Positions 2,782 through 32,429 of a stretch of 41,136 nt of DNA are shown in pieces; position 1 is the first letter of the stretch; each line of letters starts with the position of its first letter. A program made the translations under genes and the position numbers. The notes beneath the pieces are model-generated. The model saw only the letters and a list, made by a program, of their open reading frames with translations, ran no database searches and was not told where the DNA came from. Location: assembly GCA_018676275.1 (NCBI GenBank), contig JABHFC010000440.1, forward strand, positions 1 through 41,136, in the 5' to 3' direction. The DNA comes from Gammaproteobacteria bacterium. Lineage in GTDB: Bacteria; Pseudomonadota; Gammaproteobacteria; Eutrophobiales; Eutrophobiaceae.

Positions 2782-2976
2782 CTGCTCATTTCCCGGTTTA
2801 AAGCTCGTTCCTATATTACTTCCTGTTAGCTGATAAATACATTTTTGCCAGAAAATAGCATTTCGTCTCTTCAATCATTCGTTTCATCGAACTTAACTTT
2901 CCATTTAATAAAAACTGTTTAGTCTTGGCAGCACTTAAACACACACACAATTTTAAATTTTACAGAGGGAAAAACA

Positions 2977-3303: not shown

Positions 3304-3323
3304 AACCGGAAAGTTATCATAAT

Positions 3324-3355
3324 CAGGACACGTTCAAAGAGTTGAGCGTGTCCTG
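3324..3355. terminator. bidirectional rho-independent terminator between convergent genes
   Basis: CAGGACACGTTCAA-AGAG-TTGAGCGTGTCCTG: a 14-bp stem with one mismatch and a 4-nt loop. It is followed by TTATTT on the + strand and flanked by an AT-rich run on the other side. It lies between the stops at 3303 (+) and 3367 (-). Confidence 0.7.
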
Positions 3356-3366
3356 TTATTTCAAAG

Positions 3367-4494: not shown

Positions 4495-4592
4495 GTTTTA
4501 CTCCTGCTGGAAAAGCAGCGGATATTGTCTGAACTTGGCTTGCAAGGCAAGAGCTTAGTTTGTCTCCGTGTCCATGATGAGCTGTAGACTTA

Positions 4593-5771: not shown

Positions 5772-5796
5772 GTGCAATCCCCTGACCACATAATTT

Positions 5797-6705: not shown

Positions 6706-6726
6706 AGCGTTTCTCCCGATTTATAA

Positions 6727-8007: not shown

Positions 8008-8057
8008 AATGAGGTTTAACTATCCTTTAGTGACAAGATTGAGAGTTTAGATCTTCG

Positions 8058-9164
8058 CTAGGGCATTCTTAATATTGGTTTGATTACCTCACCTGTACCG
8101 GCACTGTCATGAACGGCCTGGTTGATATCGGCGAAATCATAGAATTTCACAAAACGATCATAAGGTAGCCTTCCAGCGCGGAATAATTCAGCCAGGTAAG
8201 GTACAAAATTCTGTACGTTGGCTTCGCCCATAACGACACCACGAATACCACGACCGAACACCACCTGGTCCATTTCCAGGGGTACAGTTATTCCTGATGG
8301 CGTAACACCTACCTGTGCGCACCAGCCTGGTGGTGTTAAGCAATTAACAGCTTGTATTACGACTTCGGGCACACCGGTGCATTCGACGGAATAATTTGCA
8401 CCGCCGCCGGTTATGGACTGAATGTTTTCAACAACATCTTCCTCTTGTGCATTAACGATCGCTGTTGCGCCAATTTCCATTGCCATTTCAAGTCGTGATG
8501 GATTCACATCAATAACAATAATTTTCTCACAGCCCGCTAAACGCGCGCCCATAGCTGCCGAAAGTCCAACAGTACCGGCACCGAAAATTGCGATACTTGA
8601 GCCGGGGTTTGGTTTTAGAGCATTCATAACGGTACCAACACCGGTAGTCAGACCGCAGCCCAGTGGACCCAATAATTCCAGCGGTAAATCCTTTGGAACT
8701 TTGATAACACCGGGAGCCGATGCAATAACGTTTGTGGAGAATGATGATTGTCCCACAAAGCGACCACGCATTGGTTCGCCATTGCAAACAAGACATGAAC
8801 TACCGTCTACTCTTTCGCCAGTTAGATTACGTTCGACAAATTCTTTGCAGTAAAAAGGTAAGCCCTGATGACAGTTACTACAGTGTCCACAGGAGTCACC
8901 ACATAACACTACATGATCGCCGACCTTAACATGAGTAATAGCGCCACCTACTTCCTCGACGACGCCAGCACCTTCGTGACCGAGAACCATAGGCAAAGGT
9001 AGTGCGAAAGATTGTTCTTTGACGGCGATGTCAGTATGGCAGATACCGGTTGCCTTGATTTTGACTCTTACTTCATTGGCCAGCGGAGGTAGTAAGTCCA
9101 TTTCGACGAGTTCGAAAGGTTCTTCTGGTGAGCGTGCGACCGCGGCAAGTGTCTGTATTGTCAT
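8058..9164 (-). CDS. Zn-dependent NAD(P) alcohol dehydrogenase (aryl/benzyl-alcohol-DH-like MDR)
   Basis: GICHTD and GHEGAG catalytic-Zn motifs, the structural-Zn cysteine cluster CGHCSNCHQG, and a Rossmann GAGTVG. Confidence 0.85.
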   Translation of the reverse strand: MTIQTLAAVARSPEEPFELVEMDLLPPLANEVRVKIKATGICHTDIAVKEQSFALPLPMVLGHEGAGVVEEVGGAITHVKVGDHVVLCGDSCGHCSNCHQGLPFYCKEFVERNLTGERVDGSSCLVCNGEPMRGRFVGQSSFSTNVIASAPGVIKVPKDLPLELLGPLGCGLTTGVGTVMNALKPNPGSSIAIFGAGTVGLSAAMGARLAGCEKIIVIDVNPSRLEMAMEIGATAIVNAQEEDVVENIQSITGGGANYSVECTGVPEVVIQAVNCLTPPGWCAQVGVTPSGITVPLEMDQVVFGRGIRGVVMGEANVQNFVPYLAELFRAGRLPYDRFVKFYDFADINQAVHDSAGTGEVIKPILRMP

Positions 9165-9252
9165 TTCTATATCTCTTTACTGGGACCTTACAACAAAATT
9201 CATTTCTATAGCAGACCTGGTTAAGAACAAGCATGTTCGAAGCTTCAGTAAA

Positions 9253-9318
9253 AGTATAGAGGAGCTGATCTGTGTGACTTTTACTGTGGATGCCAGCTTT
9301 TTATCTTTTGGTGCCAAA
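9253..9318 (-). promoter_or_regulatory. activator-type promoter module, copy 1: 41-bp conserved element (9278-9318) plus -10 TATACT (complement of 9253-9258)
   Basis: CTTTTACTGTGGATGCCAGCTTTTTATCTTTTGGTGCCAAA matches the copy at 23040-23080 at 37/41 positions (hand count). It contains TGCCA twice, 21 bp apart. The -10-like hexamer sits 25 bp from the element edge, exactly as in the other two copies. It faces the ADH-MFS-MBL-enolase-aminotransferase operon. Confidence 0.6.
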
Positions 9319-9327
9319 GCTGGTATT

Positions 9328-10383
9328 ATGAAAACATCAATGTTCACCTACTCCTTAACAAATAGCTGGCTCTCAGCCCTGGTCAGGGCGGTAGAGACCT
9401 ATGGCATTGACCCACATGATTTACTGGTTGGTGAACTGAAATCGGATGATCTTAGTGATCCAGTCAATGCCAGAATTGATCATTATTCCATGACCAGAAT
9501 ATGGAGGCGGGCTGCGGTAATTACCAATGATCCAGCGATTGGGCTCGTTGCTGCGAGTTTTGTTGGTCCTGCTACATTTGGTTCAGTGTCATTTGCCATG
9601 AATGCCAGTGACTGTTCATCGACCGCTCTACGAACTCTGGTTCGTTACAATCAGCTCGGATCCAATGCAGCAACATGGACCTTTCGACAGGATGAAAAAT
9701 ATGTCGAGCTGACCCAGAAAATGAGAGGTCCAATAGGGGCACCGGAACAAAAAGATGCAAATGTAGCGGCGATATTAAGTATTTGTCGAAGTCTGGGTGA
9801 CCCAAGTCTTCGTTATGAAAAACTTGTCATTGGCAGACCGGCGCCAAAGGATATCTCCCGATGGCGGGATTATTTTTCACTCATTCCTGAATTTCAGGAC
9901 AACGGAACCAGCTTTATGCGCTTGCCGCGAGAGTCTGTCGATAAACGCTGGCCAAATTATGAACCAGAATTATTTGAATTGAGCATTTCAATACTGGAAA
10001 GGCAATTGAAACAAGTTGGCAAGTCATCTTTTCTGGCTCAGGTGAAAGCAGAAATAATTGAAGGAATGGAACAGGGTAATATCCATATTGATCTGGTAGC
10101 AGAAAAACTTGGTATTAGTCGGCGGACATTGCAAAGACGCCTCTGGTCCGAAAGTAACTACACTTACAGCAACTTGTTTCAGGCAGTTCGGCGTTCACTT
10201 GCCAACCGATACCTTGTCAGTTCATCTCGAACTATAGAAGAAATCAGTGATCTGCTTGGATATTCGAATGTTTCAAGTTTCAGTCGAAGTTTTCGCCAGA
10301 GTTTTGGTGTCACTCCTTCGAAATACAGACGTGAATCTAATAGTTCAGATATAGAAATACTGGAGCCGATAGGGCCTCTCTGA
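9328..10383 (+). CDS. AraC/XylS-family transcriptional regulator
   Basis: C-terminal double-HTH signature (ISRRTLQRRL ... IEEISDLLGYSNVSSFSRSFRQSFGVTPSKYR) and an N-terminal AraC-type effector-binding-like domain. The track ORF begins at 9019, but that part overlaps the divergent ADH gene. I take the first ATG clear of that overlap, 9328 (MKTSMFTYS). Confidence 0.85.
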   Translation: MKTSMFTYSLTNSWLSALVRAVETYGIDPHDLLVGELKSDDLSDPVNARIDHYSMTRIWRRAAVITNDPAIGLVAASFVGPATFGSVSFAMNASDCSSTALRTLVRYNQLGSNAATWTFRQDEKYVELTQKMRGPIGAPEQKDANVAAILSICRSLGDPSLRYEKLVIGRPAPKDISRWRDYFSLIPEFQDNGTSFMRLPRESVDKRWPNYEPELFELSISILERQLKQVGKSSFLAQVKAEIIEGMEQGNIHIDLVAEKLGISRRTLQRRLWSESNYTYSNLFQAVRRSLANRYLVSSSRTIEEISDLLGYSNVSSFSRSFRQSFGVTPSKYRRESNSSDIEILEPIGPL

Positions 10384-10395
10384 TTTTTGCTTCGC

Positions 10396-11409
10396 TCAGG
10401 GGTTTACCTGCACTTTAATCGAAAGCTGTTTTTTATCTTCTGCTGCGGAAAACGCTTCAACAATTTGATCAAGCTTGAATCGGTGTGTAATAAGCAGTTC
10501 AAGTTTTTCAGCATGCTTATTAACAAGCTCACCTGCCACTTTAAAATCAGAATTCTGGTTTTCATGCCCGTGACAATTTGAAGCGACCAGTGATAACTCA
10601 TTGGTAAGAAATCGTAACGCGGGTAATTCCGGGTTACCCCTGAATGCTCCAAGCATTAGAATCGTCCCGCCGGTTTTGGCAAGCAGAACTGAATCAGACA
10701 ATGTAGTGGCATTACCGCCAACTGTTTCCACAACCACATCTATATATTGGTCACCAAGTTCATTTAGCAATTCATCTGAATTTGCAAAAACTCTGGTGGC
10801 ACCAAAATGTTTAGCAACTTCCTGTTGATGTGGATGGCGTGCACTAATGAAAACTTCATTTGCCCCTCCTGCATAGGAACTCAGAATGGAAAGAAGACCA
10901 ATTGAACCTGCACCAAGTATAGCGACGCGAGCACCTATATTAATTTTCGCGCGTCTTGTACCGCGTACACAGACGGCCATGGGTTCAGTTAGTGCAGAGA
11001 CATTAGCTGAAAGAGTAGTATTCAGTGGATAGACGAGTGATTCCGGAATCTGAATGAGTTCTGCCAATCCACCTGGTTGCGAGTAGCCAAAAAAATCCTT
11101 CGTCGCACAACGATTGGGACTGCCACTGTTACAATGCTGGCAATGACCACATCCGAACACCGGTTCAATAGCAACCGCAGTACCGGTAGCAAGATTAACA
11201 TTGTCGCCAACTACATCGATTACTCCTGCTATTTCATGCCCGGGTCGAATACCTTCCGGTGAACCCAGTTCGCCATTCTTAATATGCAAATCAGTACCAC
11301 AAATTCCTACTGCCGTGACCGCCAGCTGCAACCACCCCGGTTGCAGTTCCGGGATGTCGACGTTTTTAAGGTTTACACTACCGTCTGCAGAATATACTGC
11401 CGCTTTCAT
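10396..11409 (-). CDS. Zn-dependent MDR dehydrogenase (sorbitol / threonine-dehydrogenase-like)
   Basis: 337 aa with GICGTDLH, GHEIAG, CGHCQHCNSG and a Rossmann GAGSIG. Confidence 0.85.
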   Translation of the reverse strand: MKAAVYSADGSVNLKNVDIPELQPGWLQLAVTAVGICGTDLHIKNGELGSPEGIRPGHEIAGVIDVVGDNVNLATGTAVAIEPVFGCGHCQHCNSGSPNRCATKDFFGYSQPGGLAELIQIPESLVYPLNTTLSANVSALTEPMAVCVRGTRRAKINIGARVAILGAGSIGLLSILSSYAGGANEVFISARHPHQQEVAKHFGATRVFANSDELLNELGDQYIDVVVETVGGNATTLSDSVLLAKTGGTILMLGAFRGNPELPALRFLTNELSLVASNCHGHENQNSDFKVAGELVNKHAEKLELLITHRFKLDQIVEAFSAAEDKKQLSIKVQVNP

Positions 11410-11423
11410 ATCGAGGCAGGAGC

Positions 11424-12548
11424 CTAGTCTTCAAGCACCAGATCGGGATCAATTTCCACACCAAGACCAGGAGCCTGGGGCATATTCATATAACCCTCAG
11501 CATCAACAACCGGTGGATTGGTTAGTATGGACAGGAAGTTCTGGTAGGCTCCAATTGGTGGGTCATTTACCAGTTCGATGTATGGAGCGTGAGTCCAACT
11601 GGCGACCATATGCATGTGTGCAATCAATCCCAGCTTGACGTAACCGTTGTGCGGAACCACTTGTTTATTGTGTTTTCTGGCGAGCTCACCTACTTTCAGT
11701 GTCTCAGTAATACCCGTCAATACCAGGCATTCAGGTTGTAAAATACTGTAGACGTTTCGCTCGCACATCTGTTCGAACTCATACAGGATGCCACTATTTT
11801 CACCGCCGGCTATTGGTATCTCTAAGGCCTCACCTAAACTTATCAGTTCTTCTAAAGCGTAACGTGGTCTGGGTTCTTCAAGCCAGGCACAATTCAGATT
11901 TTGTAATTCAAGACCGGTTTCATAAGCACGCTGATAATCCCATCTCACTCCCGGTTGCCAGTCACCTTTTGATTGTGCCTGATTGGCATCAACCATAATT
12001 TGCATATCATCACCGACAGCTTCGCGTACACAGGTGACTGTGCGAATATCTTCCTGCATGGTTTCATGATGTAAACGTACTTTTATTGCCTGCCAGCCAT
12101 CTGCTTTTAGTTTCAGTGCCATTTCTGCGCGTTCTTCAGGTGTTGATAACAACACCATAGCTGCATAAGGAACAATCTTGTCCTTTGTGCCACCCCAAAG
12201 CTTGTAAAGTGGCTGACCTTTCGCTTTGCCTACGATATCCCATAAGGCAATATCAACGCCGGCAACATGTTGATAGTGAGTTCCGTATGGCAGGTAGTAT
12301 TCTAATTGTGCACTTAATTGCTCGACATCCAGCGGGTTTTTACCAATCAGGATTTTTTCCAAAGCAGGGAGGAAGCGATCATCAATTTCAGGACCAATGC
12401 CGCAAATGCCTTCGTCCGTCTGTATCTCGACATAGCTACCACCGCCTAATTGAACCGGTAATTTGTCACCCGGGCTCCAGGCCAGATCCAGTGTGCCAAT
12501 TTCTTCAATCACGCGTAAGCGTCGAATCCGTACGTTTGAAATTTTCAT
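11424..12548 (-). CDS. enolase-superfamily enzyme (MR/MLE family), paralogue 2
   Basis: 374 aa with an N-terminal capping domain and a barrel carrying IKVRL, MVDANQ, WLEEP, AGGEN and PHNG contexts, typical of acid-sugar dehydratase / racemase members. Confidence 0.85.
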   Translation of the reverse strand: MKISNVRIRRLRVIEEIGTLDLAWSPGDKLPVQLGGGSYVEIQTDEGICGIGPEIDDRFLPALEKILIGKNPLDVEQLSAQLEYYLPYGTHYQHVAGVDIALWDIVGKAKGQPLYKLWGGTKDKIVPYAAMVLLSTPEERAEMALKLKADGWQAIKVRLHHETMQEDIRTVTCVREAVGDDMQIMVDANQAQSKGDWQPGVRWDYQRAYETGLELQNLNCAWLEEPRPRYALEELISLGEALEIPIAGGENSGILYEFEQMCERNVYSILQPECLVLTGITETLKVGELARKHNKQVVPHNGYVKLGLIAHMHMVASWTHAPYIELVNDPPIGAYQNFLSILTNPPVVDAEGYMNMPQAPGLGVEIDPDLVLED

Positions 12549-12586
12549 GCTAGGCCTTTTATATATTTCTCATTGAATAAACATAT

Positions 12587-14797
12587 CTATTGATTAGACA
12601 GCCAGGTTAACCTGGCACTTTCTTTATTTCCCAAAACGACAGCTCGATCTTCATAAGCGCGTGCGCGTACGTAATGGTGAATTTTTTCTACTTCATCCAG
12701 GGAAAGCACATCGTCGAAAGCCGCCATGCCATTCGTAGCTAATAGGCCTTCAAGCACAACACGGCTAAAAATTTCATGCTTTCCGTCTGTGAGTAAACGT
12801 AAATCAGGGATAGAACCACCGGAGCGTGCCAGTAGACCATGACACATCGCGCAATAATTGTTGTACAGTCCTTCACCCTCTCCAATAATATTTTCACTAA
12901 CAACAACGACTGATTGCTGCGGAATTATTCTGTCTATAGCATTTGGAACAGGTAATTTTTCATTGCCGCCAATTTTAAAAACTAACAAGCGACCTAAGTT
13001 GCCATACTTTGTTGATGCAGTTTCAGTTTCACCACCGAATAGATCTGCACCGCCACCACCGGTTAAGACTGAAACGTATTGAGTATCATCAAGTTGAAAT
13101 GTAACTGGTGGTGCCAACATAGAGGTGTAAGTATTAAACTGCCATAACAAGTCTCCATTTTCCTTGTCATAGGCGCTAAACATGCCGGCAGCATCGCCCT
13201 GAAAAACCAGGCCACCTGAGGTTGCCAGCACACCACCATTCCAGTAATAGGGGTTTCTGACTGTCCATTTTGTCTCGCCAGTGAGTGGATCAAAAGCCTT
13301 GAGTGCGCCGCCCGGGGTGGGTTGCTCAGCAACATTGTCTATAAACAGCTGTGCAAGTCTTCCCATTTCCAGACCAATGTTCCATCTACCTGGGTTGCGT
13401 TTATAACTACTGAATTGTTTCCATTCATCGGCAATGGCAAAAATAAGCGGACTTTCCTGTGTTGGGATGTAAACAAGTCCCGCCTCAGTATCAACGGACA
13501 TAGCTTGCCAGTTATGTGCACCGGCTGACCCTGGCAAGACCCATTTCTCTTTTTCAAGATAACTATAGTCGGGGTTTTCTACCGGGCGGCCACTCTCCAG
13601 ATCAACATGGGTAGCCCAGGTGACAAGACTATATGGGTGGGCTCGTAATAATTTTCCATTGCTGCGATCCAGAACATAAAAAAAGCCATTCTTTGGTGCC
13701 TGCATTAATACCTTACGTTGTTCACCGTCAACTTCTATTTCCGCCAGAGCAATGTCCTGTACTGCGGTGTAGTCCCAGTTATCTCCCGGAGTGGTCTGGT
13801 AATACCAGTTCATTTTGCCGCTGTCGGCATCCAAAGCAACTATGGAAGACAGAAACAGATTGTCGCCACCATCAGGTGATCGAATGGCGCGTGTCCACGG
13901 TGAACCATTACCTACGCCAATATATAGTTGATTGAAATCAGGATCGTAAACAATGGAATTCCATACTGTACCGCCACCACCAAATTTCCAGTACTCGTTA
14001 CCGCTCCAGCTGGCGGCGGCCAGTTCCAGTTCAGGATGCTCAAATGGTAAGGCAGGGTCGCCGGGTACGGTAAAGAAACGCCATGCCTGTTTTCCTGTTT
14101 TCGCGTCGTAGGCAGTTACATATCCCCGCACACCAAATTCTGCGCCACCATTTCCAATGAAGACTTTACCTTTGGCAACTCGTGGGGCTCCGGTGATTGT
14201 GTAGAAGCGATTACGGTCAATAAGCGTATCTACCTGCCAGACTTCTTCACCACTACCTGCGTCCAGTGCAATAAGTCGACCATCAAGAGTTCCCACATAC
14301 ACGTGTCCCTGGTATACGGCAACACCACGATTAACGGCGTCACAGCAGGCGCGACGAGACCAGTCCTTTGGAACATCAGGGTCATATTGCCAGAGTATTT
14401 CACCTGTCTTTGCTTTAATCGCAAAAACTTTACTCCAGGCACTACTGACAAACATGATGCCATCTACAACAATTGGGGTGGCCTCCTGGGCGCGGTTAGT
14501 GCCCATGTCGAGGTGCCATTCCAGACCAAGTTTTTTGATCGTGTTTTTGTTGATCTTTTTTAGTGGAGAAAAACGTTGTTCTTCATATCCAAGACCATAA
14601 GACATCCAGTTATTGGGTTCACCATCATGATTTATTATTCTTTCATCAGTAATGTTGCCGACAATGCTGGTTTCATTTTGTTTGGCTTCAGGTTTTTGCG
14701 CAGCTTGATCAGTAGAGGTCGAATTGTCACAAGCACCAAGACTTAGCAATACAGAAATCACGGCTATCTTCATTATTGAAAAATGCCTGATTGTCAT
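12587..14797 (-). CDS. quinohaemoprotein (type II) PQQ-dependent alcohol dehydrogenase, possibly lipid-anchored
   Basis: 736 aa with a PQQ beta-propeller and the vicinal Cys-Cys (SRRACCDAVNRG). The C-terminal cytochrome c domain has CAMCHG. The N-terminus MKIAVISVLLSLGAC has a lipobox-like LGAC. Confidence 0.9.
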   Translation of the reverse strand: MTIRHFSIMKIAVISVLLSLGACDNSTSTDQAAQKPEAKQNETSIVGNITDERIINHDGEPNNWMSYGLGYEEQRFSPLKKINKNTIKKLGLEWHLDMGTNRAQEATPIVVDGIMFVSSAWSKVFAIKAKTGEILWQYDPDVPKDWSRRACCDAVNRGVAVYQGHVYVGTLDGRLIALDAGSGEEVWQVDTLIDRNRFYTITGAPRVAKGKVFIGNGGAEFGVRGYVTAYDAKTGKQAWRFFTVPGDPALPFEHPELELAAASWSGNEYWKFGGGGTVWNSIVYDPDFNQLYIGVGNGSPWTRAIRSPDGGDNLFLSSIVALDADSGKMNWYYQTTPGDNWDYTAVQDIALAEIEVDGEQRKVLMQAPKNGFFYVLDRSNGKLLRAHPYSLVTWATHVDLESGRPVENPDYSYLEKEKWVLPGSAGAHNWQAMSVDTEAGLVYIPTQESPLIFAIADEWKQFSSYKRNPGRWNIGLEMGRLAQLFIDNVAEQPTPGGALKAFDPLTGETKWTVRNPYYWNGGVLATSGGLVFQGDAAGMFSAYDKENGDLLWQFNTYTSMLAPPVTFQLDDTQYVSVLTGGGGADLFGGETETASTKYGNLGRLLVFKIGGNEKLPVPNAIDRIIPQQSVVVVSENIIGEGEGLYNNYCAMCHGLLARSGGSIPDLRLLTDGKHEIFSRVVLEGLLATNGMAAFDDVLSLDEVEKIHHYVRARAYEDRAVVLGNKESARLTWLSNQ

Positions 14798-26916: not shown

Positions 26917-27744
26917 ATGGGAAGAGGCAATAAAAACAAGCGAAAAAACAGCGGTCCGTCCCTGGCGGATAAGGCTGACAGACACGTTTTGTACGAAGCT
27001 GCTGTGCAGTGTGCAGAGTCAGAAATTGATTTTGTTGACCAGACTTTCCAGAAACTGAGCAATCGCCAGGCGGTAAAATTGCGTGAGGATTTTTGCGGCA
27101 CGACCAATTCATCCTGCGAATGGGTCAGACGTCGCGATTCAAACCAGGCTTACTGCGTTGACCTTGATCCTGATGTGCTGGCCTGGGGTAAAGAGAATCA
27201 CATTAAGAAATTGTCGGATGATGAACAAAAACGCATAAATATTTTCACGGCAGATGTCATGGATGCCGTTGCTACATCCATGGACATTGTTTTGGCGATG
27301 AACTTCAGTTACTGGATATTCAAAGATCGACAGACAATGGTTCGCTATTTTCGTAGCGTATATGAGAGTCTGGTGGATGATGGTGTTTTTTTTCTTGATA
27401 GCTTTGGTGGCTATGAATCTTTCAAGGAGATGGAAGAAAGTACAAAGCACGATGGTTTTACCTATATCTGGGATCAATCATTTTACAATCCGATTACTGG
27501 CGACGGTCGATTCTATATTCATTTTAAATTCAAAGATGGCTCAAGTATTAAAAAGGCCTTTACCTACGAATGGCGTGTCTGGACCTTACCGGAGATAACA
27601 GAGATGTTGACTGAAGCTGGTTTCAAAGCCGAGGTTTATTGGGAAGGCGAAGATGAAGATGGTGAAGGCAACGGTGAGTTTGAAGCAACTACGGATGGCG
27701 AAGCCGATGCAGGCTGGATTGCTTATATCGTTGCGCAGAAATAG
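26917..27744 (+). CDS. class I SAM-dependent methyltransferase
   Basis: 275 aa with a basic N-terminus (MGRGNKNKRK), a Rossmann-like EDFCGT ... CVDLD ... FTADV core and an acidic C-terminal tail. Confidence 0.7.
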   Translation: MGRGNKNKRKNSGPSLADKADRHVLYEAAVQCAESEIDFVDQTFQKLSNRQAVKLREDFCGTTNSSCEWVRRRDSNQAYCVDLDPDVLAWGKENHIKKLSDDEQKRINIFTADVMDAVATSMDIVLAMNFSYWIFKDRQTMVRYFRSVYESLVDDGVFFLDSFGGYESFKEMEESTKHDGFTYIWDQSFYNPITGDGRFYIHFKFKDGSSIKKAFTYEWRVWTLPEITEMLTEAGFKAEVYWEGEDEDGEGNGEFEATTDGEADAGWIAYIVAQK

Positions 27745-27800
27745 TAGCGACATTATTCATCTGTAAATATCTCATTTCCGCAATTTCGAAATAATAATTC

Positions 27801-27821
27801 GGCCTGTTATTCAAACAGGCC
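27801..27821 (+). terminator. possible terminator hairpin after the methyltransferase gene
   Basis: GGCCTGTT-ATTCA-AACAGGCC: a perfect 8-bp stem, 57 nt after the stop. The downstream U-tract is weak (ATCTATC). Confidence 0.35.
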
Positions 27822-27989
27822 ATCTATCACCTTGCTGGCAATTTAGTAATGTTGTAAATATGTGCAGGTGGAATCCGCATGATTTACCAACCATCAAAAT
27901 AATCTTACTAATTCAATATCTTGCCAAATAAAAGAACAGTGAAGAAAAAGGGATCTACGACTGGATAACTACGGCCAAGGTCACTGATA

Positions 27990-28018
27990 TTGGCACCAAA
28001 AAAAAGCACAGCTATACT
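27990..28018 (+). promoter_or_regulatory. near-consensus sigma-70 promoter facing the cassette array
   Basis: TTGGCA (27990-27995), a 17-nt spacer, then TATACT (28013-28018). Each hexamer matches its consensus at 5/6. It is the only such match I saw between the methyltransferase gene and the first cassette ORF. Confidence 0.45.
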
Positions 28019-28067
28019 CAATTGATTGAAAAGGAGAAACCGGGAGTTATTCCTCTCATGTACATCA

Positions 28068-28120
28068 CTACAACAAGCGCCAAATAACTACGGCCATGGC
28101 CATAGAATAAACCGTTATGA
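28068..28120 (+). repeat. left-boundary attC-like / attI-like remnant
   Basis: It begins CTACAAC-AAG and ends CC-GTTATGA. The centre is CTACGGCCATGGCCATAG, with a perfect GGCCATGGCC palindrome. The arms pair poorly and it is shorter than the other sites. Confidence 0.35.
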
Positions 28121-28138
28121 TTCAAGCAACACATCGAC

Positions 28139-28672
28139 ATGATTGATAATATCCTTGGCGTTTTAGCGACTACTGCAGTAACAATTGGAGGGTTCACTGT
28201 AATAGCAAGTGTGCTGGGCGCACAACTTATTGGTTCGCGTACAGGCGAGGCGTGGTTAGCCTTTTTTATCGTTACAGAAAGTCTATATTCGTTAATCGTA
28301 GTCCTTTTGCCTCTAATTCTCAGTACTTATCCCGTTGATAATAGCCTTGTTTGGCAAATATCCAGCATTCTATCCATTGTGATTAATATTCCGTTTTATC
28401 TGATGCTTACAAGATTTGCTGAATTTCACAAAAATAATGTAAGAAAGCGATTGCTAGAGACAATCACCTATAGCTTCATTATTTTTATTGATGTAGTTGC
28501 AATGCTTATTTTTTTATTTTTGGCAATAGGAGTATGGGTAAAGGAAGAATGGGGTATCGCATTATACGTCACTGCCGCCTCACTGTTGCTACTGGAGGCC
28601 ATTTGGGCGGTAGTGTTATTGGTGCTGAGAACATTTATGAGTGTAGTGGATGAGAGCACAAATGAATCATAA
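28139..28672 (+). CDS. cassette 1: polytopic membrane protein, no recognisable family
   Basis: 177 aa with about 5 hydrophobic segments. The stop codon TAA is part of the inverse core TCATAAC of the following attC. Confidence 0.6.
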   Translation: MIDNILGVLATTAVTIGGFTVIASVLGAQLIGSRTGEAWLAFFIVTESLYSLIVVLLPLILSTYPVDNSLVWQISSILSIVINIPFYLMLTRFAEFHKNNVRKRLLETITYSFIIFIDVVAMLIFLFLAIGVWVKEEWGIALYVTAASLLLLEAIWAVVLLVLRTFMSVVDESTNES

Positions 28673-28729
28673 CGAATGGCTCCAGAACGACGCGCAAAAA
28701 ACGCGCGCGTCTGAGCCTAGACGTTAGCT
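28667..28729 (+). repeat. attC site 1 (63 bp)
   Basis: TCATAAC...GTTAGCT. The arms GGCTC(C)AGA(A)CG(A)CGCGC and GCGCGCGTCTGAGCC pair with three unpaired bases on one arm. Confidence 0.8.
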
Positions 28730-28732
28730 GTC

Positions 28733-29047
28733 TTGAAAAATAGTATTACAAAAATCATAGGAACTAGTGGAGCCTTAATCACTTTTGTGCTCTTTTTAAG
28801 TGGTTGCGATGATGGGCATTTGAGAGGAAAGGTTACAGAGTCATCTGATGGAGAAACGTACTTTGCAGTAATTGATAATAATGGAGGTCATTGTGGGCCG
28901 ATATTACTAGATGGCATAGAATGGATTCATCCTGTAGGTGAAAAGGCTAAAATCATCCCAGGAAGACACACAATTAAATGTGGATCGACGATTTCATTTG
29001 AGGTTCCATCAGGGGTACTTTACGAATTTGATTATTGGGGTCCATGA
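28733..29047 (+). CDS. cassette 2: small lipoprotein, no recognisable family
   Basis: 104 aa from a TTG start 4 nt past the attC core. The signal has the lipobox FLSGC and the mature part contains 2 further Cys. Confidence 0.55.
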   Translation: MKNSITKIIGTSGALITFVLFLSGCDDGHLRGKVTESSDGETYFAVIDNNGGHCGPILLDGIEWIHPVGEKAKIIPGRHTIKCGSTISFEVPSGVLYEFDYWGP

Positions 29048-29054
29048 CAGAAAC

Positions 29055-29135
29055 AGCTAACAAGGCAATCGAGGTCGACTGGGCAAAGTGCCGCTTCGCT
29101 TTACTTTCCCCAGCGGCTCATCGCAGACGTTATGT
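29055..29135 (+). repeat. attC site 2 (81 bp)
   Basis: AGCTAAC-AAG...GAC-GTTATGT. Inner arms GCAATCGAG / CTCATCGC and GTCGACTGGG / CCCCAGCGGC pair imperfectly. Confidence 0.65.
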
Positions 29136-29147
29136 GATACAGATAGA

Positions 29148-29456
29148 ATGAAAAAACTAGTTTTATTCCTGAGAAACTTACTTCTTCCTGCTTTCATACA
29201 CTTTCTGATTGTTGGTGCCTTTAGTACTATAGATCCATGTAATAATAATCCAGGTTGCATGGCAGGATCATCTACATTCTATTTCCTTTTGCTGATCACG
29301 ACTCCTGTAATGCTTGTTCTTTTTGTTGGTAGTATTATTCAGCTGATGATAGAAGAACCAAATTATTCGAAATATTTGATAATTAACCTAGGGATTGCAC
29401 TAATTCCAATTCCATTAGTGGCAGGCATAATATATGGAATCAGAACATTCACATAA
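29148..29456 (+). CDS. cassette 3: small membrane protein, no recognisable family
   Basis: 102 aa from the ATG at 29148 (MKKLVLFL...), with about 3 TM segments. The track's start at 29088 lies inside attC 2 and I rejected it. The stop TAA lies in the inverse core ACATAAC. Confidence 0.55.
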   Translation: MKKLVLFLRNLLLPAFIHFLIVGAFSTIDPCNNNPGCMAGSSTFYFLLLITTPVMLVLFVGSIIQLMIEEPNYSKYLIINLGIALIPIPLVAGIIYGIRTFT

Positions 29457-29527
29457 CAAGACAGTCAACCCGTCGCGCTCTTTAGTAATGGCGCTGCGCG
29501 ATAACAATTATAACGCGGGCGTTATGT
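29451..29527 (+). repeat. attC site 3 (77 bp, less regular)
   Basis: ACATAAC-AAG...GGC-GTTATGT, with GC-rich inner arms (CCCGTCGCGC / GCGCTGCGCG / CGCGGG). Its pairing is less clean than in sites 1, 4 and 6. Confidence 0.5.
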
Positions 29528-29545
29528 GTCTAAAAGAGTTCAATT

Positions 29546-29959
29546 ATGACTGACTTAGAAGTAATTTATCAGCTTTCTGAAGTTTACAACCGCGTCTGGA
29601 ATATGAGTCAGTGGTGGGCGAGTATTTCTTTCATGATTATTGCGATATCCCATTTCACTTCTCATAAACTAAATAAGTTTTTAGTTGGAATTATACTAAT
29701 TCTATATATGGCATTTTCAATTTGGCTATATAGATTTTCCACCTATAACGTTTCAATAATTTTTGGCTTATTACAAGATCTTCAGAACCTTATCGACTCA
29801 GGAGTACCGCTATCTCAGGGTGCTATTCGATATTTGGCAGTAAAAGAAGACTGGATTACGCCAATATTCATTAACATCGCTCAAGCTGGAACTTTCATTG
29901 CGACTATTTCGTACGTAATCTATTGTCAGTTGGATATAAGTAAAAAAAGTGACGGATGA
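29546..29959 (+). CDS. cassette 4: membrane protein, no recognisable family
   Basis: 137 aa with about 3 TM segments. AAGAG lies 7-11 nt upstream of the ATG. Confidence 0.6.
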   Translation: MTDLEVIYQLSEVYNRVWNMSQWWASISFMIIAISHFTSHKLNKFLVGIILILYMAFSIWLYRFSTYNVSIIFGLLQDLQNLIDSGVPLSQGAIRYLAVKEDWITPIFINIAQAGTFIATISYVIYCQLDISKKSDG

Positions 29960-29966
29960 TGAACAC

Positions 29967-30027
29967 ACATATCAAGTGCCTCCAGATCGACGCCAAAAAG
30001 CGGTGCGACTGAGCCAAGACGTTATGC
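29967..30027 (+). repeat. attC site 4 (61 bp)
   Basis: ACATATC-AAG-TGCCTCCAGATCGACGCCAAAAAGCGGTGCGACTGAGCCAAGAC-GTTATGC. It is the same family as sites 1, 6 and 7. Confidence 0.75.
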
Positions 30028-30089
30028 ACACTGAATTATATCGCTTGAAAAAAATTGAATTGAATTTTTAATTATTATGTTTTCATTGA

Positions 30090-30332
30090 ATGTCAGTTGA
30101 ATCTCTTATGCTTATGGGCATTATTTTTATCGGTGTGATTTTGATTGCCTCGATTAAAAGTATCCATTGTCCATATTGGCAACTACCTCTTGGGGCTAGT
30201 TTATTAATTGGAAGCGTAATCCTAAGTTTAATAGCGCCGGTCACCTGGGTTGAAGTGGGATTATCTTGGTTTTTCGGTGCCGGGACTGCTATCTTGGCTG
30301 TTGTAGTTCGCGCATACCAAGATAGCAGGTGA
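30090..30332 (+). CDS. cassette 5: small membrane protein, no recognisable family
   Basis: 80 aa with 2-3 hydrophobic segments. Confidence 0.5.
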   Translation: MSVESLMLMGIIFIGVILIASIKSIHCPYWQLPLGASLLIGSVILSLIAPVTWVEVGLSWFFGAGTAILAVVVRAYQDSR

Positions 30333-30354
30333 AGTGATTATCGCGACGTTATGA
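30312..30354 (+). repeat. short / internally deleted attC-like site 5 (43 bp)
   Basis: GCATACC-AAG...CGAC-GTTATGA. Both ends resemble the array consensus, but the central arms are missing. Confidence 0.35.
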
Positions 30355-30411
30355 TCTAGATACAATCTGGCTAAGGGTGTTTGATAATTAACAAATAGTA
30401 AGGAGAGAATT

Positions 30412-30516
30412 ATGGCTAAAGGTCGAGATGCAAAAAAAGCAGTTAAAAGGAAGTCTGAAAAGACTTTGAAAGAAAAACGTCAGGAAAAAAAGGAAAAGAA
30501 AGCCAATAGAAAATAA
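30412..30516 (+). CDS. cassette 6: 34-aa lysine-rich basic peptide (below the ORF-track cutoff)
   Basis: MAKGRDAKKAVKRKSEKTLKEKRQEKKEKKANRK. TAAGGAGAG lies 5-13 nt upstream of the ATG at 30412. It sits between attC-like site 5 and attC 6. Confidence 0.4.
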   Translation: MAKGRDAKKAVKRKSEKTLKEKRQEKKEKKANRK

Positions 30517-30564
30517 ACATGGTTTCTGAATATAATATTTAGAAATTGTTTTTTGAGATGCAAA

Positions 30565-30623
30565 ACATAACAAGCTCTTCCAGCGCGACGCCAATAGCGG
30601 TACGCCTGAGGCAAACGTTATGC
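30565..30623 (+). repeat. attC site 6 (59 bp)
   Basis: ACATAAC-AAG-CTCTTCCAGCGCGACGCCAATAGCGGTACGCCTGAGGCAAAC-GTTATGC. Confidence 0.75.
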
Positions 30624-30637
30624 ATAAAGAGTGAGAC

Positions 30638-31048
30638 ATGAAATCTATTTTTTTCTACGGGCTTTTTATGGATGAGGTGCTTCTTAAAAAGAACGGAGTA
30701 AATCCATCAAATTCAACTCAAGCCCGTATTGATGGTTATGGTTTGAGAATTGGAAAACGGGCAACACTCGTTGAATCAGAAGCCGAGAGTGTATATGGAG
30801 TGATTATGTCGCTGAGCACAGAGGGCGTAAATAATCTTTATAGTGCAGATAGCGTCTCAGATTATATTCCAGAAGATCTGATCGCGATTACTCCAGACAA
30901 TGAAACTTTGCCAGTAATTTCTTACAATCTGCCATTAGTAAAATTGACCGGTCAAAACAAAGAATATGCTAAATCACTATGTCTCGTGGCAAAAAAGGTC
31001 GGCCTCCCATCTGAGTATGTAAAAGAAATAGAGAAATGGACAGTTTGA
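30638..31048 (+). CDS. cassette 7: gamma-glutamylcyclotransferase (AIG2/GGCT-like) family protein
   Basis: 136 aa. The N-terminal IFFYGLFMDEVLLKK...ARIDGYGLRIG...VYGVIMSL pattern resembles the GGCT-like fold signature (YGxLM ... G ... xGxxY). Confidence 0.5.
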   Translation: MKSIFFYGLFMDEVLLKKNGVNPSNSTQARIDGYGLRIGKRATLVESEAESVYGVIMSLSTEGVNNLYSADSVSDYIPEDLIAITPDNETLPVISYNLPLVKLTGQNKEYAKSLCLVAKKVGLPSEYVKEIEKWTV

Positions 31049-31052
31049 AAAT

Positions 31053-31112
31053 GCCTAACAAGTTGCTCCAGAGTAACTCCAAAAAGCTTCTCAACAGAGG
31101 CAAACGTTATGA
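31053..31112 (+). repeat. attC site 7 (60 bp)
   Basis: GCCTAAC-AAG-TTGCTCCAGAG...CAGAGGCAAAC-GTTATGA. Confidence 0.65.
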
Positions 31113-31126
31113 ATCCAGGATGAAAT

Positions 31127-31675
31127 ATGGGCGATAGATTTGAAAAACTCAGTGAGAAACACATCGATTTTATCTCACGGCAGCATATGTTTTTTGTTGG
31201 CACTGCAGGTACTGAAGGCTTCGTAAATGTCTCACCGAAAGGAATGGATACCTTTCGAGTTATAAATGATACGAACGTAGCCTGGTTAAATTTGACTGGA
31301 AGCGGTAACGAAACAGCTGCTCATGTACTGGAAAGCGACCGCATGACGATTATGTTTTGTTCTTTTGATAAGCATCCAATAATTTTGAGATTGTATGGTA
31401 ATGCATCGGTCACTCATCCTCGAGACCAGAAGTGGGATGAACTCATTCGTTTATTTCCGGAATACCCGGGTGCGCGTCAAATCTTTGAACTCAATCTGGA
31501 ACTGGTTTTAGCATCTTGTGGTTATGCTGTTCCATATTATGAGCTGAAAGGTGAGCGCCCGACACTTGGAAAATGGGCAGATAGCAAAGGCAGAGATGGG
31601 ATCGAGGAATATTGGCAGGAGAGAAACACAGAAAGTCTCAATAAAAAACCTACCGGAATAGAAGACGATGCATAA
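31127..31675 (+). CDS. cassette 8: pyridoxamine 5'-phosphate oxidase-family (FMN-binding split-barrel) protein
   Basis: 182 aa. FFVGTAGTEGFVNVSPKG...LNLTGSGNET..H......MTIMFCSF is typical of PNPOx-like proteins. AGGA lies 7 nt upstream of the ATG. The stop TAA lies in GCATAAC. Confidence 0.7.
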   Translation: MGDRFEKLSEKHIDFISRQHMFFVGTAGTEGFVNVSPKGMDTFRVINDTNVAWLNLTGSGNETAAHVLESDRMTIMFCSFDKHPIILRLYGNASVTHPRDQKWDELIRLFPEYPGARQIFELNLELVLASCGYAVPYYELKGERPTLGKWADSKGRDGIEEYWQERNTESLNKKPTGIEDDA

Positions 31676-31713
31676 CAAACGAATGCAGTCCGACATACCA
31701 CTCGTAGTTTAGC
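31670..31713 (+). repeat. terminal degenerate attC remnant
   Basis: A good inverse core GCATAAC-AAAC, but only a degenerate core-like GTTTAGC at 31707. It is too short for a functional attC. Confidence 0.3.
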
Positions 31714-31727
31714 TCTGGTGCGAGACC

Positions 31728-32429
31728 TTACTCAGGGTTAACCTTCTTTTCCATCTCTTCAATGGTGAGATGTCTTACATCTTTTCCTTCAACAAAATAA
31801 ACAACATATTCGCAAATGTTGCGGGCATGATCACCAATACGTTCAAGTGACCTTACGGTCCAGACTGCATCAATGACGGCGCTGATACTGCGTGGATCTT
31901 CCATCATGTAAGTGATCAGTTGTCGGAGAATTGCGGCATATTGTTCGTCCGACTCTGGTTCCCTGGCCGCTGTTTTTACGGCTGCTGCAGAGTCCATACG
32001 GGCGAAAGCGTCCAATGCATCGCGAACCATTTCACTTACATAGTTACCCATGGCGTTGATACCGACATAGTAAGACTTTGTGCCTTGTTTCTCGGTAAGA
32101 TAGATAGCCATCTGCGCAACCTTTTCGGCTTCATCACCGATACGTTCCAGATCGGTAATTGTTTTGATAACCGCAGTGATTAGCCGGAGATCTTTTGCCG
32201 CAGGTTGTCTACGTGCGAGTATCTGTGTGCATTCTTCGTCGATGGATACTTCGTAAGAATTAACGCTGGGTTCATTGGTGATTACTGTCTGCCCCAATTC
32301 GATATCTGAATCAGTTAAAGCCTGCAACGCGTCAGTGATTTGCTTTTCAACAAGACCACCCATTGCCATTACCCTGCCACGGATATTATCTAGCTCGTTA
32401 TCAAATTGTTTGGATATGTGTTGACTCAT
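31728..32429 (-). CDS. phoU: phosphate signalling complex protein PhoU
   Basis: 233 aa with two PhoU repeats (ERIGDEAEKVA and ERIGDHARNICE), immediately downstream of pstB. Confidence 0.9.
   Translation of the reverse strand: MSQHISKQFDNELDNIRGRVMAMGGLVEKQITDALQALTDSDIELGQTVITNEPSVNSYEVSIDEECTQILARRQPAAKDLRLITAVIKTITDLERIGDEAEKVAQMAIYLTEKQGTKSYYVGINAMGNYVSEMVRDALDAFARMDSAAAVKTAAREPESDEQYAAILRQLITYMMEDPRSISAVIDAVWTVRSLERIGDHARNICEYVVYFVEGKDVRHLTIEEMEKKVNPE

Follow-up and report, generated by a model that had tools for sequence, protein, structure and literature searches.

A probable CALIN, partly fossilised, between a methyltransferase gene and phoU in an uncultured marine gammaproteobacterium

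What kind of element separates a conserved methyltransferase gene from phoU in an uncultured marine gammaproteobacterium, and how did it come to lie there? In the window (the whole 41,136-nucleotide stretch of DNA that was analysed), eight integron-type cassettes are sited between these genes on one strand of the chromosome, with GTTRRRY cores as their bounds. The array is very probably a CALIN, i.e., an integron cassette cluster without an adjoining integrase, that is partly fossilised. A preliminary description of the locus had put forward two readings, a CALIN or the decayed remnant of a sedentary chromosomal integron; the former is supported by (i) the scores of attC covariance models, (ii) comparison with relatives and (iii) the absence of an integrase. 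CALINs are a well-documented kind of element, and the case is real but ordinary.

The left flank is a conserved SAM-dependent methyltransferase-like gene (26917-27744, + strand; weak Pfam matches to Methyltransf_11/12/25), the partner of djlA; 536 genome stretches encode a relative, in most cases beside djlA. Between its stop codon and the first core, a sequence scan finds a non-coding leader (27745-28113) of 369 bp, not the approximately 320 bp estimated earlier. The leader includes a hairpin (27800-27822), a 19-nt direct repeat (ATAACTACGGCCA.GG.CA, at 27965 and 28084) and a sigma-70-like site (TTGGCA-17-TATACT, 27990-28018) from which the array may be expressed. No attI or intI remnant is recognisable in the leader, no attC site is found there by either covariance model (class-1-trained or marine), and among all fetched loci the leader is similar only to an identical contig (L118). 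The left edge of the array, previously set at 28068, is a bare GTTATGA core without upstream attC arms (28114-28120, + strand). The right flank is phoU (31728-32429, - strand; Pfam PF01895 and synteny in relatives), the last gene of a phoB-phoR-pstSCAB-phoU cluster, which is convergent with the array; the last cassette site overlaps the phoU stop codon, and the proposed gap of 15-50 bp thus does not exist. The G+C content is 39% (39.3%) in the array versus 45% in each flank. Samples that contain the array all have it at 100% identity; population data are therefore uninformative on whether it is static.

A unit of the array is a single ORF that lacks a promoter of its own, with an attC site after it. 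All gene-sized ORFs between 28139 and 31675 are on the + strand, as first noted and in agreement with the gene calls of the source metagenome, and none of the eight cassette ORFs is disrupted, which gives no hint of an element that died long ago. Most of the cargo has no assigned function, and there are no resistance genes in it; the roles named below are putative. Cassette 1 (ORF 28139-28672, 177 aa) encodes a hydrophobic and, judged by eye, probable membrane protein that has no match in Pfam, NCBIfam or PADLOC and, among 5.8 billion proteins, finds only itself and no other homologue. Cassette 2 (28733-29047, 104 aa) encodes a lipoprotein-like product with a putative N-terminal signal ending in LSGC (by eye). 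Hydrophobic proteins are encoded by cassettes 3 (29148-29456, 102 aa), 4 (29546-29959, 137 aa) and 5 (30090-30332, 80 aa); contigs of at least nine other samples encode the cassette 4 protein in identical form and amid the same neighbours. Cassette 6 spans 269 bp (30349-30617) and encodes a 34-aa lysine-rich peptide (30412-30516) preceded by a Shine-Dalgarno-like AAGGAG. The product of cassette 7 (30638-31048, 136 aa) is AIG2/GGACT-like (gamma-glutamylcyclotransferase fold; Pfam PF13772, 28.9 bits, barely over the cut-off), and that of cassette 8 (31127-31675, 182 aa) is a PNPOx-like, putatively FMN-binding protein (Pfam PF01243, 44 bits) with 53% identity to a cassette ORF of another array, L133.

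The inverse cores reported in the preliminary description are all present (TCATAAC at 28667, AGCTAAC at 29055, ACATAAC at 29451, ACATATC at 29967, ACATAAC at 30565, GCCTAAC at 31053 and GCATAAC at 31670), as are the cores (GTTAGCT at 28723, GTTATGT at 29129 and 29521, GTTATGC at 30021 and 30617, and GTTATGA at 31106), to which two further GTTATGA cores are added (28114 and 30348). The TAA that stops the ORF is part of the inverse core in three cassettes (ORF ends 28672, 29456 and 31675), as described. The further claim that a palindrome follows every ORF stands for the six of the eight units that have a recognisable attC site, and fails for the 80-aa cassette and for the last site.

All sites lie on the + strand. 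Four of them, 59-63 nt in length, form one family (the 60-nt family), as had been recognised by eye; a strict pattern drawn from them matches four times in the window versus zero times in 100 shuffles. The first member, attC 1 (28667-28729, 63 nt), is well preserved (18.4 bits with the class-1 model; 34.7 bits, E 1.3e-6, with the marine model). Its bottom strand folds as in a classic attC, with a dG of -16.7 kcal/mol (z = -3.9), and the 3' arm alone carries three bulges of one base each (T, T and G), which bears out the unpaired bases noted earlier on a single arm; the same T, T, G bulges occur in intact members of the family, and T and G in attC-aadA2. The other three members are weakened: attC 4 (29967-30027, 61 nt; marine model 34.0 bits) has TATC as its R'' and several mismatches in the stem, and its dG of -6.9 kcal/mol is among the weakest 9% of the family; attC 6 (30565-30623, 59 nt; 34.0 bits) has a dG of -8.4 kcal/mol; and attC 7 (31053-31112, 60 nt; 16.9 bits, E 0.055), which is badly weakened, has a dG of -3.2 kcal/mol, in the weakest 1%. 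Two longer sites are attC 2 (29055-29135, 81 nt), the top scorer in both models (class-1, 28.8 bits, E 4.6e-5; marine, 46.2 bits, E 1.4e-9), which has 86-93% identity to four sites of a large array, L126, and attC 3 (29451-29527, 77 nt), which has an irregular stem (class-1, 12.8 bits; marine, 18.4 bits, E 0.022) and is 76-82% identical to three L126 sites. The remaining two are remnants. At attC 5 (30348-30354) the R' core GTTATGA stands alone, the arms are deleted, and there is neither a fold nor a match in either model. The attC 8 relic (31670-31733) retains an intact R'' (GCATAAC), with degenerate arms and CTTACTC at the position of the core; its TTA (31728-31730) is, read on the opposite strand, the phoU stop codon. 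The relic no longer folds and both models miss it; it can be aligned with the attC of the homologous L133 cassette, which is intact (TAACAAACG...GCGAGAC(G/C)TTA).

The two covariance models are home-built proxies for the attC model of IntegronFinder, and neither was trained on window sequence. The class-1 model, for which nine attC sites of class 1 integrons were the sole training set, has candidate sites as six of its seven best window matches, on the + strand and with exact ends. These six score 11-29 bits, the best of them (28.8 bits) on a level with a held-out true attC (28.7 bits); taken singly, four of the six are at noise level (11-14 bits versus a chance match of 13.2). Across 1.2 Mb of related genomes, the same model finds one match. 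The marine model was built from 89 marine attC sites, themselves detected by the class-1 model, and scores the six sites at 46.2, 34.7, 34.0, 34.0, 18.4 and 16.9 bits, with the top noise at 8.9 bits; it is independent for the 77- and 81-nt sites and not fully so for the 60-nt family, as its training loci were fetched with a window-derived pattern. In 1.2 Mb of relatives, it reaches 30 bits or more only at two sites of one locus (L044). Covariation in 84 distinct marine sites is consistent with this structure: compensatory changes occur in eight of nine L-box pairs, and 85% of cells are paired versus 22-42% when the partner column is slid. In the covariance scoring proposed earlier, six sites match with strand and ends as predicted, and these six are attC sites.

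The same attC types tie the window to arrays that do have integrases. A family-specific pattern retrieves 119 metagenome stretches, in which 176 model matches in 407 kb form same-strand arrays, and the 60-nt family adjoins true integron integrases (TIGR02249, 461-463 bits against a cut-off of 265). Two of the arrays are of note: L140, with intI and approximately 10 attC sites, and L126, with approximately 25. All three length classes of the window match L126 sites (76-93% identity), and the G+C content of L126 is 39.7% versus 39.3% in the window array. Copies of cassette 6 occur in three further metagenomic contexts (L198/L172, L152 and L117; 84-86% identity), with a different upstream attC for each copy; the homology is bounded exactly by GTTA cores and starts at the core at 30348. 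The cassettes derive from a marine pool in which these attC types occur in long arrays and beside genuine integron integrases.

No integrase is seen near the array, as the preliminary description held. Pfam searches of all large ORFs find no integrase or integrase pseudogene in the window, a tblastn search of the window with three IntI proteins yields no match under E = 0.6, and the gene tables of the contig list no integrase for approximately 10 kb past the left end and 8.7 kb past the right end; together the search covers approximately 60 kb of the 151.6-kb contig. The genome may yet encode an integrase outside this region, one that could still work on the sites that are intact. At the corresponding locus of 80 related genomes, none of the eight ORFs is present and, thus, they are not conserved core genes. 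The empty spacer is 20 bp in one relative (L004) and 65 bp in another (L077), while some relatives carry sixA-ppx-ppk. In L002, the closest relative that keeps phoU here, the spacer contains a hicAB pair and one weak attC (18.9 bits, E 0.0056) and shares no sequence with that of the window.

The sites themselves are eroded: two are destroyed and three more weakened. The median dG of the 60-nt family is -18.3 kcal/mol (n = 108), and three of the four family sites of the window fall in the weakest tenth, for which the chance is approximately 0.004 if sites are independent. The erosion is also apparent cassette by cassette, as attC 6 (-8.4 kcal/mol) compares with -12.3 to -16.3 kcal/mol for its counterparts behind that cassette in other arrays, and the attC 8 relic (-5.0 kcal/mol) with -17.1 kcal/mol for the site of the homologous L133 cassette. 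With no integrase or attI within tens of kilobases, two sites destroyed and three weakened, the array is largely frozen and would be drifting to ordinary chromosomal DNA. No more than two or three sites (28667, 29055 and perhaps 29451) still look usable by an integrase in trans.

There is more than one account of how the cassettes arrived. An integron integrase excises a cassette as a circle, and re-insertion proceeds by a cut of the folded attC bottom strand between A and C of AAC, equivalent to G/TT on the top strand; because the integrase cuts at this point, the units start with TT(A)TG and end with the G of a GTTRRRY core. The cassettes lie in the short spacer of the convergent methyltransferase and phoU genes. 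Arrival by insertion at a genomic site other than attI, followed by attC x attC additions, is slightly favoured over loss of intI and attI in situ. The latter account, in which a complete chromosomal integron once occupied the spacer and was stripped of intI and attI with its cassettes left in place, is a tentative alternative. The leader far exceeds the 20-65-bp native spacer of relatives and, thus, is itself foreign or remnant DNA; its 19-nt repeat holds ATAAC and the boundary reads AATAAAC-C-GTTATGA, motifs that presumably recall, if loosely, the integrase-binding repeats and simple site of attI (attI1). A shared ancestral platform would also account for the weak attC and hicAB pair in the same spacer of L002. 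By contrast, IntI similarity is nil in the leader frames and in the window (best E = 0.6), the leader is unlike the attI-side DNA of the related integrons that were fetched, and the window and L002 spacers have no sequence in common. Integrase loss is the classical explanation of CALINs, yet 95% of CALINs have no intI pseudogene nearby, and in-place loss is, thus, not the default (PMC4889954).

Somewhat less likely still is a satellite array, whose cassettes are still exchanged by an active integron elsewhere in the genome and whose weak sites are natural variation. About half of CALINs are in genomes that encode IntI (PMC4889954), the match to L126 in attC classes and G+C fits a single lineage-specific pool (possibly of the same lineage), and the sites at 28667 and 29055 look fully functional; against this, the two destroyed sites and the clustering of family sites in the weakest tenth are poorly explained by natural variation, the window copies are the degraded ones when compared with the attC of the same or homologous cassettes elsewhere, and the approximately 60 kb inspected holds no integrase. 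That the sites are generic intergenic palindromes (REP-like repeats or terminators) with AAC/GTT ends by chance is highly improbable, for while they are placed at gene ends, as terminators are, and the folds of several are no more stable than those of shuffled sequence (z -0.4 to +0.5), models from experimentally known attC match them and, over the rest of the window and 1.2 Mb of related genomes, almost nothing, their bulges are strand-specific, the attC family adjoins integron integrases, cassette homology breaks at cores, T-tracts are absent after the hairpins, a terminator scan passes them over and Rfam gives no match.

Of the known systems, insertion off the integron platform (SALIN/attG) involves cassettes that IntI puts into the genome at sites other than att (Loot et al., bioRxiv 10.1101/2022.09.11.507474). 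The window likewise has cassettes off a platform, an empty site in relatives, a bare core without attC or attI arms at its left junction and an attC fused to host DNA at its right. By contrast, the published insertions are single, whereas the eight of the window would require repeated additions; the 369-bp leader goes beyond a simple insertion of this type, and the right junction has C before TT where G is expected. The attC sites of class 1 integrons (aadB, aadA2) share with those of the window a length of approximately 60 nt, the R''-spacer-L''...L'-spacer-R' layout, a bottom-strand 3' arm from which T and G bulge, a CGACGCC motif in the L'' arm and the possibility of a stop codon within R''. 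The window sites belong to a different sequence family, lack both resistance genes and a Tn402, sul1 or qacE setting and, unlike the mobile class 1 integrons, are chromosomal in an uncultured marine bacterium. Environmental chromosomal integrons (L140 and L126) share attC types with the window (60-nt family and 77-90 nt, 76-93% identity), one cassette (84-86% identity), small, often hydrophobic cargo of unassigned function and a G+C content below that of host core genes. Unlike them, the window has no integrase, attI or canonically placed Pc, has only eight cassettes and weaker hairpins, and its array is missing from the locus in nearly all relatives. The CALIN class (PMC4889954; IntegronFinder) fits best: two or more attC sites of the window share a strand and are spaced by under 4 kb, intI is absent within 4 kb and intI pseudogenes within 10 kb, and the cargo is mostly of unassigned function and free of resistance genes. 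Its eight cassettes compare with a reported mean of approximately 5 attC sites (PMC4889954), several of its sites are visibly eroded and the distal site abuts a housekeeping stop codon, while in every defining trait of the class the window agrees.

The array is set in the gene table of a 151.6-kb contig from JGI metagenome sample 3300072015 that holds the window sequence. The left block includes peptidase S51, djlA and a SAM-methyltransferase-like gene (26917-27744, + strand), and the right block is formed by phoB-phoR-pstS-pstC-pstA-pstB-phoU on the minus strand, with the phoU end at 31728. The insert between the methyltransferase gene and phoU spans 3.98 kb and has a G+C content of 39%, compared to 45% in both flanks. 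Eight + strand ORFs are found in it, encoding 177, 104, 102, 137, 80, 34, 136 and 182 aa (cassettes 1 to 8, from left to right); all are intact and are also predicted by the gene caller of the source metagenome. The ORFs start 10-69 nt past the preceding core and are all co-oriented with the attC top strand, as in clusters of cassettes without an adjacent integrase (CALINs). Promoter-like sites are not above chance in a promoter scan of the array.

The heptamers listed in the preliminary description are all found in place, including the inverse cores at 28667, 29055, 29451, 29967, 30565, 31053 and 31670 and the cores at 28723, 29129, 29521, 30021, 30617 and 31106; two more cores (GTTATGA) are present at 28114 and 30348. 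The stop codon lies within the inverse core in three cassettes, as had been proposed. The four sites of 59-63 nt (28667, 29967, 30565 and 31053, here the 60-nt family) do form one family, with a strict pattern that finds 4 matches in the window and 0 in 100 shuffles. The count of eight ORF + attC units stands in part: six units end in an attC, while the unit ending at 30348 is without a palindrome and the last site does not fold.

The site at 28667 (63 nt) provides the clearest fold. Its bottom strand forms one hairpin (-16.7 kcal/mol, z = -3.9) with a 5-bp terminal stem (R box), 3-4-nt spacers (short internal loop) and a long L stem. The unpaired bases are confined to one arm, as described from the sequence, and are single-base bulges (T, T and G) that all reside on the 3' arm of the bottom strand. 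The attC of aadA2 and the intact members of the 60-nt family fold like this site. The remaining five recognised sites, which include the 81-nt site at 29055 and the 77-nt site at 29451, keep their R boxes (one as TATC) but have partial L stems and fold more poorly than 28667.

Two attC covariance models, both proxies distinct from the model of IntegronFinder itself, detect six of the sites proposed as attC. The first model (R1) is based on class 1 integrons drawn from a plasmid collection by the IntI1 protein (100% identity). It was trained on an alignment of nine attC sites, those of aac(6')-29a, aac(6')-29b, blaVIM-2, arr-3, aacA4, aadB, aadA2, dfrA5 and dfrA27, with the R-box and L-box pairs modelled; the search of the window was unfiltered and covered both strands. 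Of the seven top R1 matches, six are predicted sites, all on the + strand and with ends exactly as predicted. They score 28.8 bits (E 4.6e-5), 18.4 bits (E 0.021), 13.8, 12.8, 11.2 and 11.0 bits; four sites have E values of 1 or less (4.6e-5, 0.021, 0.31 and 0.55), two are at 1.4-1.6 and one chance match is at 0.45. A 42-nt G+C-rich palindrome in an alcohol-dehydrogenase-like gene (8300-8341) gives R1 scores of 13.2 and 8.9 bits on opposite strands; it is absent from the output of the second model and is taken as chance. As controls of R1, a held-out genuine attC scores 28.7 bits, no false match at E ≤ 1 occurs in 125 kb of plasmid DNA except on the reverse strand of a true site, and one site only is found in 1.2 Mb of related genomes.

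The second model (R2) was trained on 89 attC sites of marine arrays found by R1 at E ≤ 5e-4. R2 scores the six window sites at 46.2, 34.7, 34.0, 34.0, 18.4 and 16.9 bits (E 1.4e-9 to 0.055), with the next best match at 8.9 bits; as its training loci were retrieved by a window-derived pattern, these scores are independent for the 77- and 81-nt sites and partly so for the 60-nt family. In the 1.2 Mb of relatives, R2 reaches 30 bits or more at two sites only, both at one locus (L044) of a related MAG. These two sites (minus strand, 5954-6016 and 6353-6407; R2 42.0 and 32.2 bits, R1 29.6 bits) lie upstream of the methyltransferase gene, at a distance of about 3.6-4 kb, and make up a small attC cluster of their own without an integrase. 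Among 84 distinct marine sites, compensatory changes are observed in 8 of 9 L-box pairs, and 85% of cells are paired compared to 22-42% after the partner column is shifted, in an alignment that is fitted to the model and so biased toward structure. By these proxies, the window holds the CALIN arrangement of at least two same-strand attC sites less than 4 kb apart at E ≤ 1, with neighbours 390-600 bp apart and all on the + strand. Rfam and tRNA scans of the window give no match.

The absence of a tyrosine recombinase or intI, stated in the preliminary description, is upheld within the window and the flanking gene tables. The Pfam scan covered the window ORFs of at least 100 aa, minus ORFs nested in longer ones and pstA/pstC, whose assignment (BPD_transp_1) was taken from the gene table of the contig. 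None of the scanned ORFs matches PF00589, and each one outside the array has a non-recombinase assignment. In tblastn searches of the six window frames, IntI1 and a pair of marine IntI proteins give a best E of 0.6 and no intI remnant, and no PF00589 entry is seen in the gene tables beyond the window (about 10 kb to the left and 8.7 kb to the right). The array is, thus, without an intI within 4 kb or an intI pseudogene within 10 kb, as expected of a CALIN, and lacks the set of intI, adjacent attI and Pc that makes a complete integron.

The 369-bp leader between the methyltransferase stop and the first core is not similar to the attI-side DNA of the fetched related integrons, and its promoter-like site (27990-28018) is within chance expectation. 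A mini-palindrome at 28082-28120 was rejected as attC or attI; it forms only a hairpin of 7 bp centred on GGCCATGGCC (-4.2 kcal/mol, z = -0.9), with no R1 or R2 match. The leader also has a 19-nt direct repeat, ATAACTACGGCCAAGGTCA at 27965-27983 and ATAACTACGGCCATGGCCA at 28084-28102, with the copies 119 bp apart and the second just 5' of the first core.

Family assignments are available for two cargo products only, an AIG2-like protein (PF13772, 28.9 bits) and a PNPOx-like protein (PF01243, 44 bits). The rest of the cargo includes several small hydrophobic proteins and a 34-aa lysine-rich peptide. PADLOC finds no defence match in the cargo, no resistance role is detected, and NCBIfam returns nothing above cut-off, with one weak sub-threshold PPOX match. 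The cassette 1 protein has no homologue in a database of 5.8 billion proteins; thus, the left boundary is not traceable by homologues.

Contigs from at least nine other samples carry the array at 100% identity, so the same strain is widespread; since all copies are identical, population variation is uninformative. The samples of L212 and L220 are among the carriers. One ENA contig with an identical copy of the array (L118, the same as L211) has a differing left flank that was discarded as a real variant; at 2.5x coverage, its join to ciliate DNA is almost certainly an assembly chimera. Its positions 1-1038 carry CCCCAAAA telomere-type repeats followed by a ciliate-like protein-kinase ORF with in-frame TAA/TAG, and this foreign part meets the bacterial sequence within a GAAGATGAAGATGG stretch of the methyltransferase gene.

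The attC sites and cassettes link the array to metagenomic integrons. The family pattern TCCAGNNYRACKC-N15-22-AGSC-N2-3-ACGTTA matches in 119 metagenome stretches, and the R'' heptamer, which is outside the search pattern, is xxxTAAC in most of the matched sites. The matched loci hold 176 R1 matches in 407 kb, as same-strand arrays, including one with about 25 attC sites (L126, WLWI01001628.1) and one in which a divergent integrase gene precedes ten sites (L140). Full-length homologues of IntI1 are detected by tblastn in L140 (51%) and a second array, L139 (52%), with partial homologues in L110, L157, L208, L169 and L154. The L140 and L139 integrases score 461 and 463 bits in the NCBIfam integron-integrase model TIGR02249 (cut-off 265). 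The location of family sites next to such integrases is indirect support for the window sites as putative integrase substrates. The L139 integrase gene (2976-3932) is co-directional with its attC sites (4537-13439), unlike the divergent genes of class 1 and L140.

At the level of single sites, the 81-nt site at 29055 is 86-93% identical to four sites of L126, and the 77-nt and 60-nt sites have L126 counterparts at 76-90% identity. Cassette 6 (30349-30617) shows the movement of a whole unit: window positions 30345-30622, which include the cassette and its attC, are 84-86% identical to L198/L172, L152 and L117, and the cassette follows a distinct upstream attC in each array context. The similarity runs from the GTTATG core to the GTTA of its own core, so that cassette 6 recurs elsewhere with its breakpoints at the cores, as expected of a mobile unit with crossover at G|TT. 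Such breakpoints are the signature of integrase-mediated cassette exchange. The sole ORF of this 269-bp cassette, in four arrays, is the 34-aa lysine-rich peptide MAKGRDAKKAVKRKSEKTLKEKRQEKKEKKANRK (30412-30516), with a good Shine-Dalgarno sequence upstream. A homologue of the PNPOx-like cassette 8 ORF, 53% identical, lies in another array (L133) with an intact family attC behind it, while the six cassettes other than 6 and 8 have no relative among the fetched loci. In this way, the window genome is connected to a pool of marine cassettes in which the 60-nt attC family is recognisable.

Not all sites of the array are intact. The 80-aa ORF of cassette 5 ends just 15 nt before the core at 30348 and its attC arms are gone; this core is a real cassette boundary because the homology of cassette 6 begins there. 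The cassette 8 site (31670-31733) aligns with the L133 attC (TAACAAACG...GCGAGAC(G/C)TTA) but its pairing is lost (-5.0 vs -17.1 kcal/mol for L133), and its core position reads CTTACTC. The TTA of this position (31728-31730) is the phoU stop codon read on the opposite strand; therefore, the array ends exactly at the phoU end. Among 108 distinct metagenome-array sites of the family, the bottom-strand free energy has a median of -18.3 kcal/mol (5th-95th percentiles -23.9 to -5.1). The window family sites are at -16.7, -6.9, -8.4 and -3.2 kcal/mol, and three of these four fall within the weakest 10%, for which the chance is about 0.004 by our own calculation. For the cassette 6 attC, the folding energy is -8.4 kcal/mol in the window compared to -16.3, -12.3 and -12.6 kcal/mol in the other arrays. 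Similarly, family members of 59-64 nt score about 16-40 bits by R1 in metagenome arrays (most 24-39) vs 11-18 bits in the window, and the G+C content of family sites is about 60-65% in metagenome arrays vs 43-54% in the window. These comparisons are direct sequence evidence of erosion in some attC sites while the cargo ORFs persist.

Comparison of the locus with relatives, a check raised in the preliminary description, was run on 80 loci of uncultured Gammaproteobacteria that were retrieved by a genome scan with the methyltransferase protein. About one third of these loci keep the order djlA-methyltransferase-(gap)-phoU-pstB. The window array is absent from the relatives at this locus: L004 and L077 have gaps of 20 and 65 bp, and the gap of 23 loci is occupied by a histidine-phosphatase (SixA-like) gene, ppx, ppk and at times extra genes. 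None of the eight window ORFs is present at any of the 80 loci, and no attC is found in the intact methyltransferase-phoU gaps of relatives save for one weak site in L002. The sixA-like, ppx and ppk genes, carried by L003 (10791-14966) and 22 more loci, are missing at this position from the window, L002, L004 and L077; this sub-lineage has, therefore, lost them from its phosphate locus or moved them out of it.

Among relatives with phoU retained at this position, L002 is the closest (phoU 88%, djlA 82% identity) and has a gap of 785 bp that has no sequence in common with the window insert. The weak attC-like site of L002 (10932-11022; R2 18.9 bits, E 0.0056) has a perfect R box and degenerate arms. 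Across the spacer (10829-11604), this decayed site precedes a hicA toxin gene and then a hicB-like ORF, a pair that is possibly a toxin-antitoxin cassette. A second L002 site, 3' of hicB (11476-11598), was dropped as it neither folds nor scores. The most similar methyltransferase (79%) is in L001, where a second array was considered and rejected: the genes are ordinary, the hairpins are terminator-like and there is no attC. In L001 (10826-15100), the methyltransferase gene is followed by genes for a ComEA-like HHH protein, GNAT, GFA, an MFS transporter and a DEAD-box helicase. Similar HHH, GFA, MFS and DEAD genes lie on the contig of the window beyond phoB and a porin gene. As the L001 methyltransferase gene is directly joined to these beyond-porin genes, the whole pst-pho cluster is missing or relocated there.

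The CALIN may have arisen by several routes. Cassettes may have been inserted at a genomic site by the attG route (Loot et al., 10.1101/2022.09.11.507474), to which the empty sites of L004 and L077, the bare core that forms the left end at 28114 and the fusion of the last attC to the phoU stop codon all point; however, this route leaves the 369 bp of leader unexplained, the base at the right junction is C and not G, and repeated additions are required for eight cassettes. An active integron may instead reside elsewhere in the genome, consistent with attC types near those of L126 and with the G+C content of the window array (39.3% vs 39.7% in L126). Finally, an integron platform may have been lost in situ with the cassettes left behind, as the very existence of the leader and the L002 insert in the same spacer would suggest, although neither the leader nor the window holds a trace of intI or attI.

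An extension of insertion by the attG route can be drawn, which we regard as rather unlikely: the methyltransferase-phoU spacer would be a recurrent attG-type hot spot at the phoU 3' end, where an integrase acting in trans builds an array de novo, the window and L002 would be independent fillings, and the ORFs would become domesticated as the attC sites erode. If true, this would be a natural multi-step case of an integrase-free route from integron cargo to ordinary chromosomal genes. The value of the locus lies in a clean, well-delimited integrase-less array, with boundaries known to the base, in an uncultured marine gammaproteobacterium. The boundaries, the attC erosion and the empty-site relatives together make the origin of this CALIN testable and provide material for the study of CALIN origin and integron cargo domestication.

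The initial reading of the array as a CALIN is borne out on every testable point of the definition of Cury et al. (PMC4889954), with the attC sites recognised by proxy models. The array belongs to this known class and leaves the knowledge of integrons unchanged. An average CALIN has about 5 attC sites; half of all CALINs come from genomes that lack IntI, and for 95% no intI pseudogene is nearby (PMC4889954).
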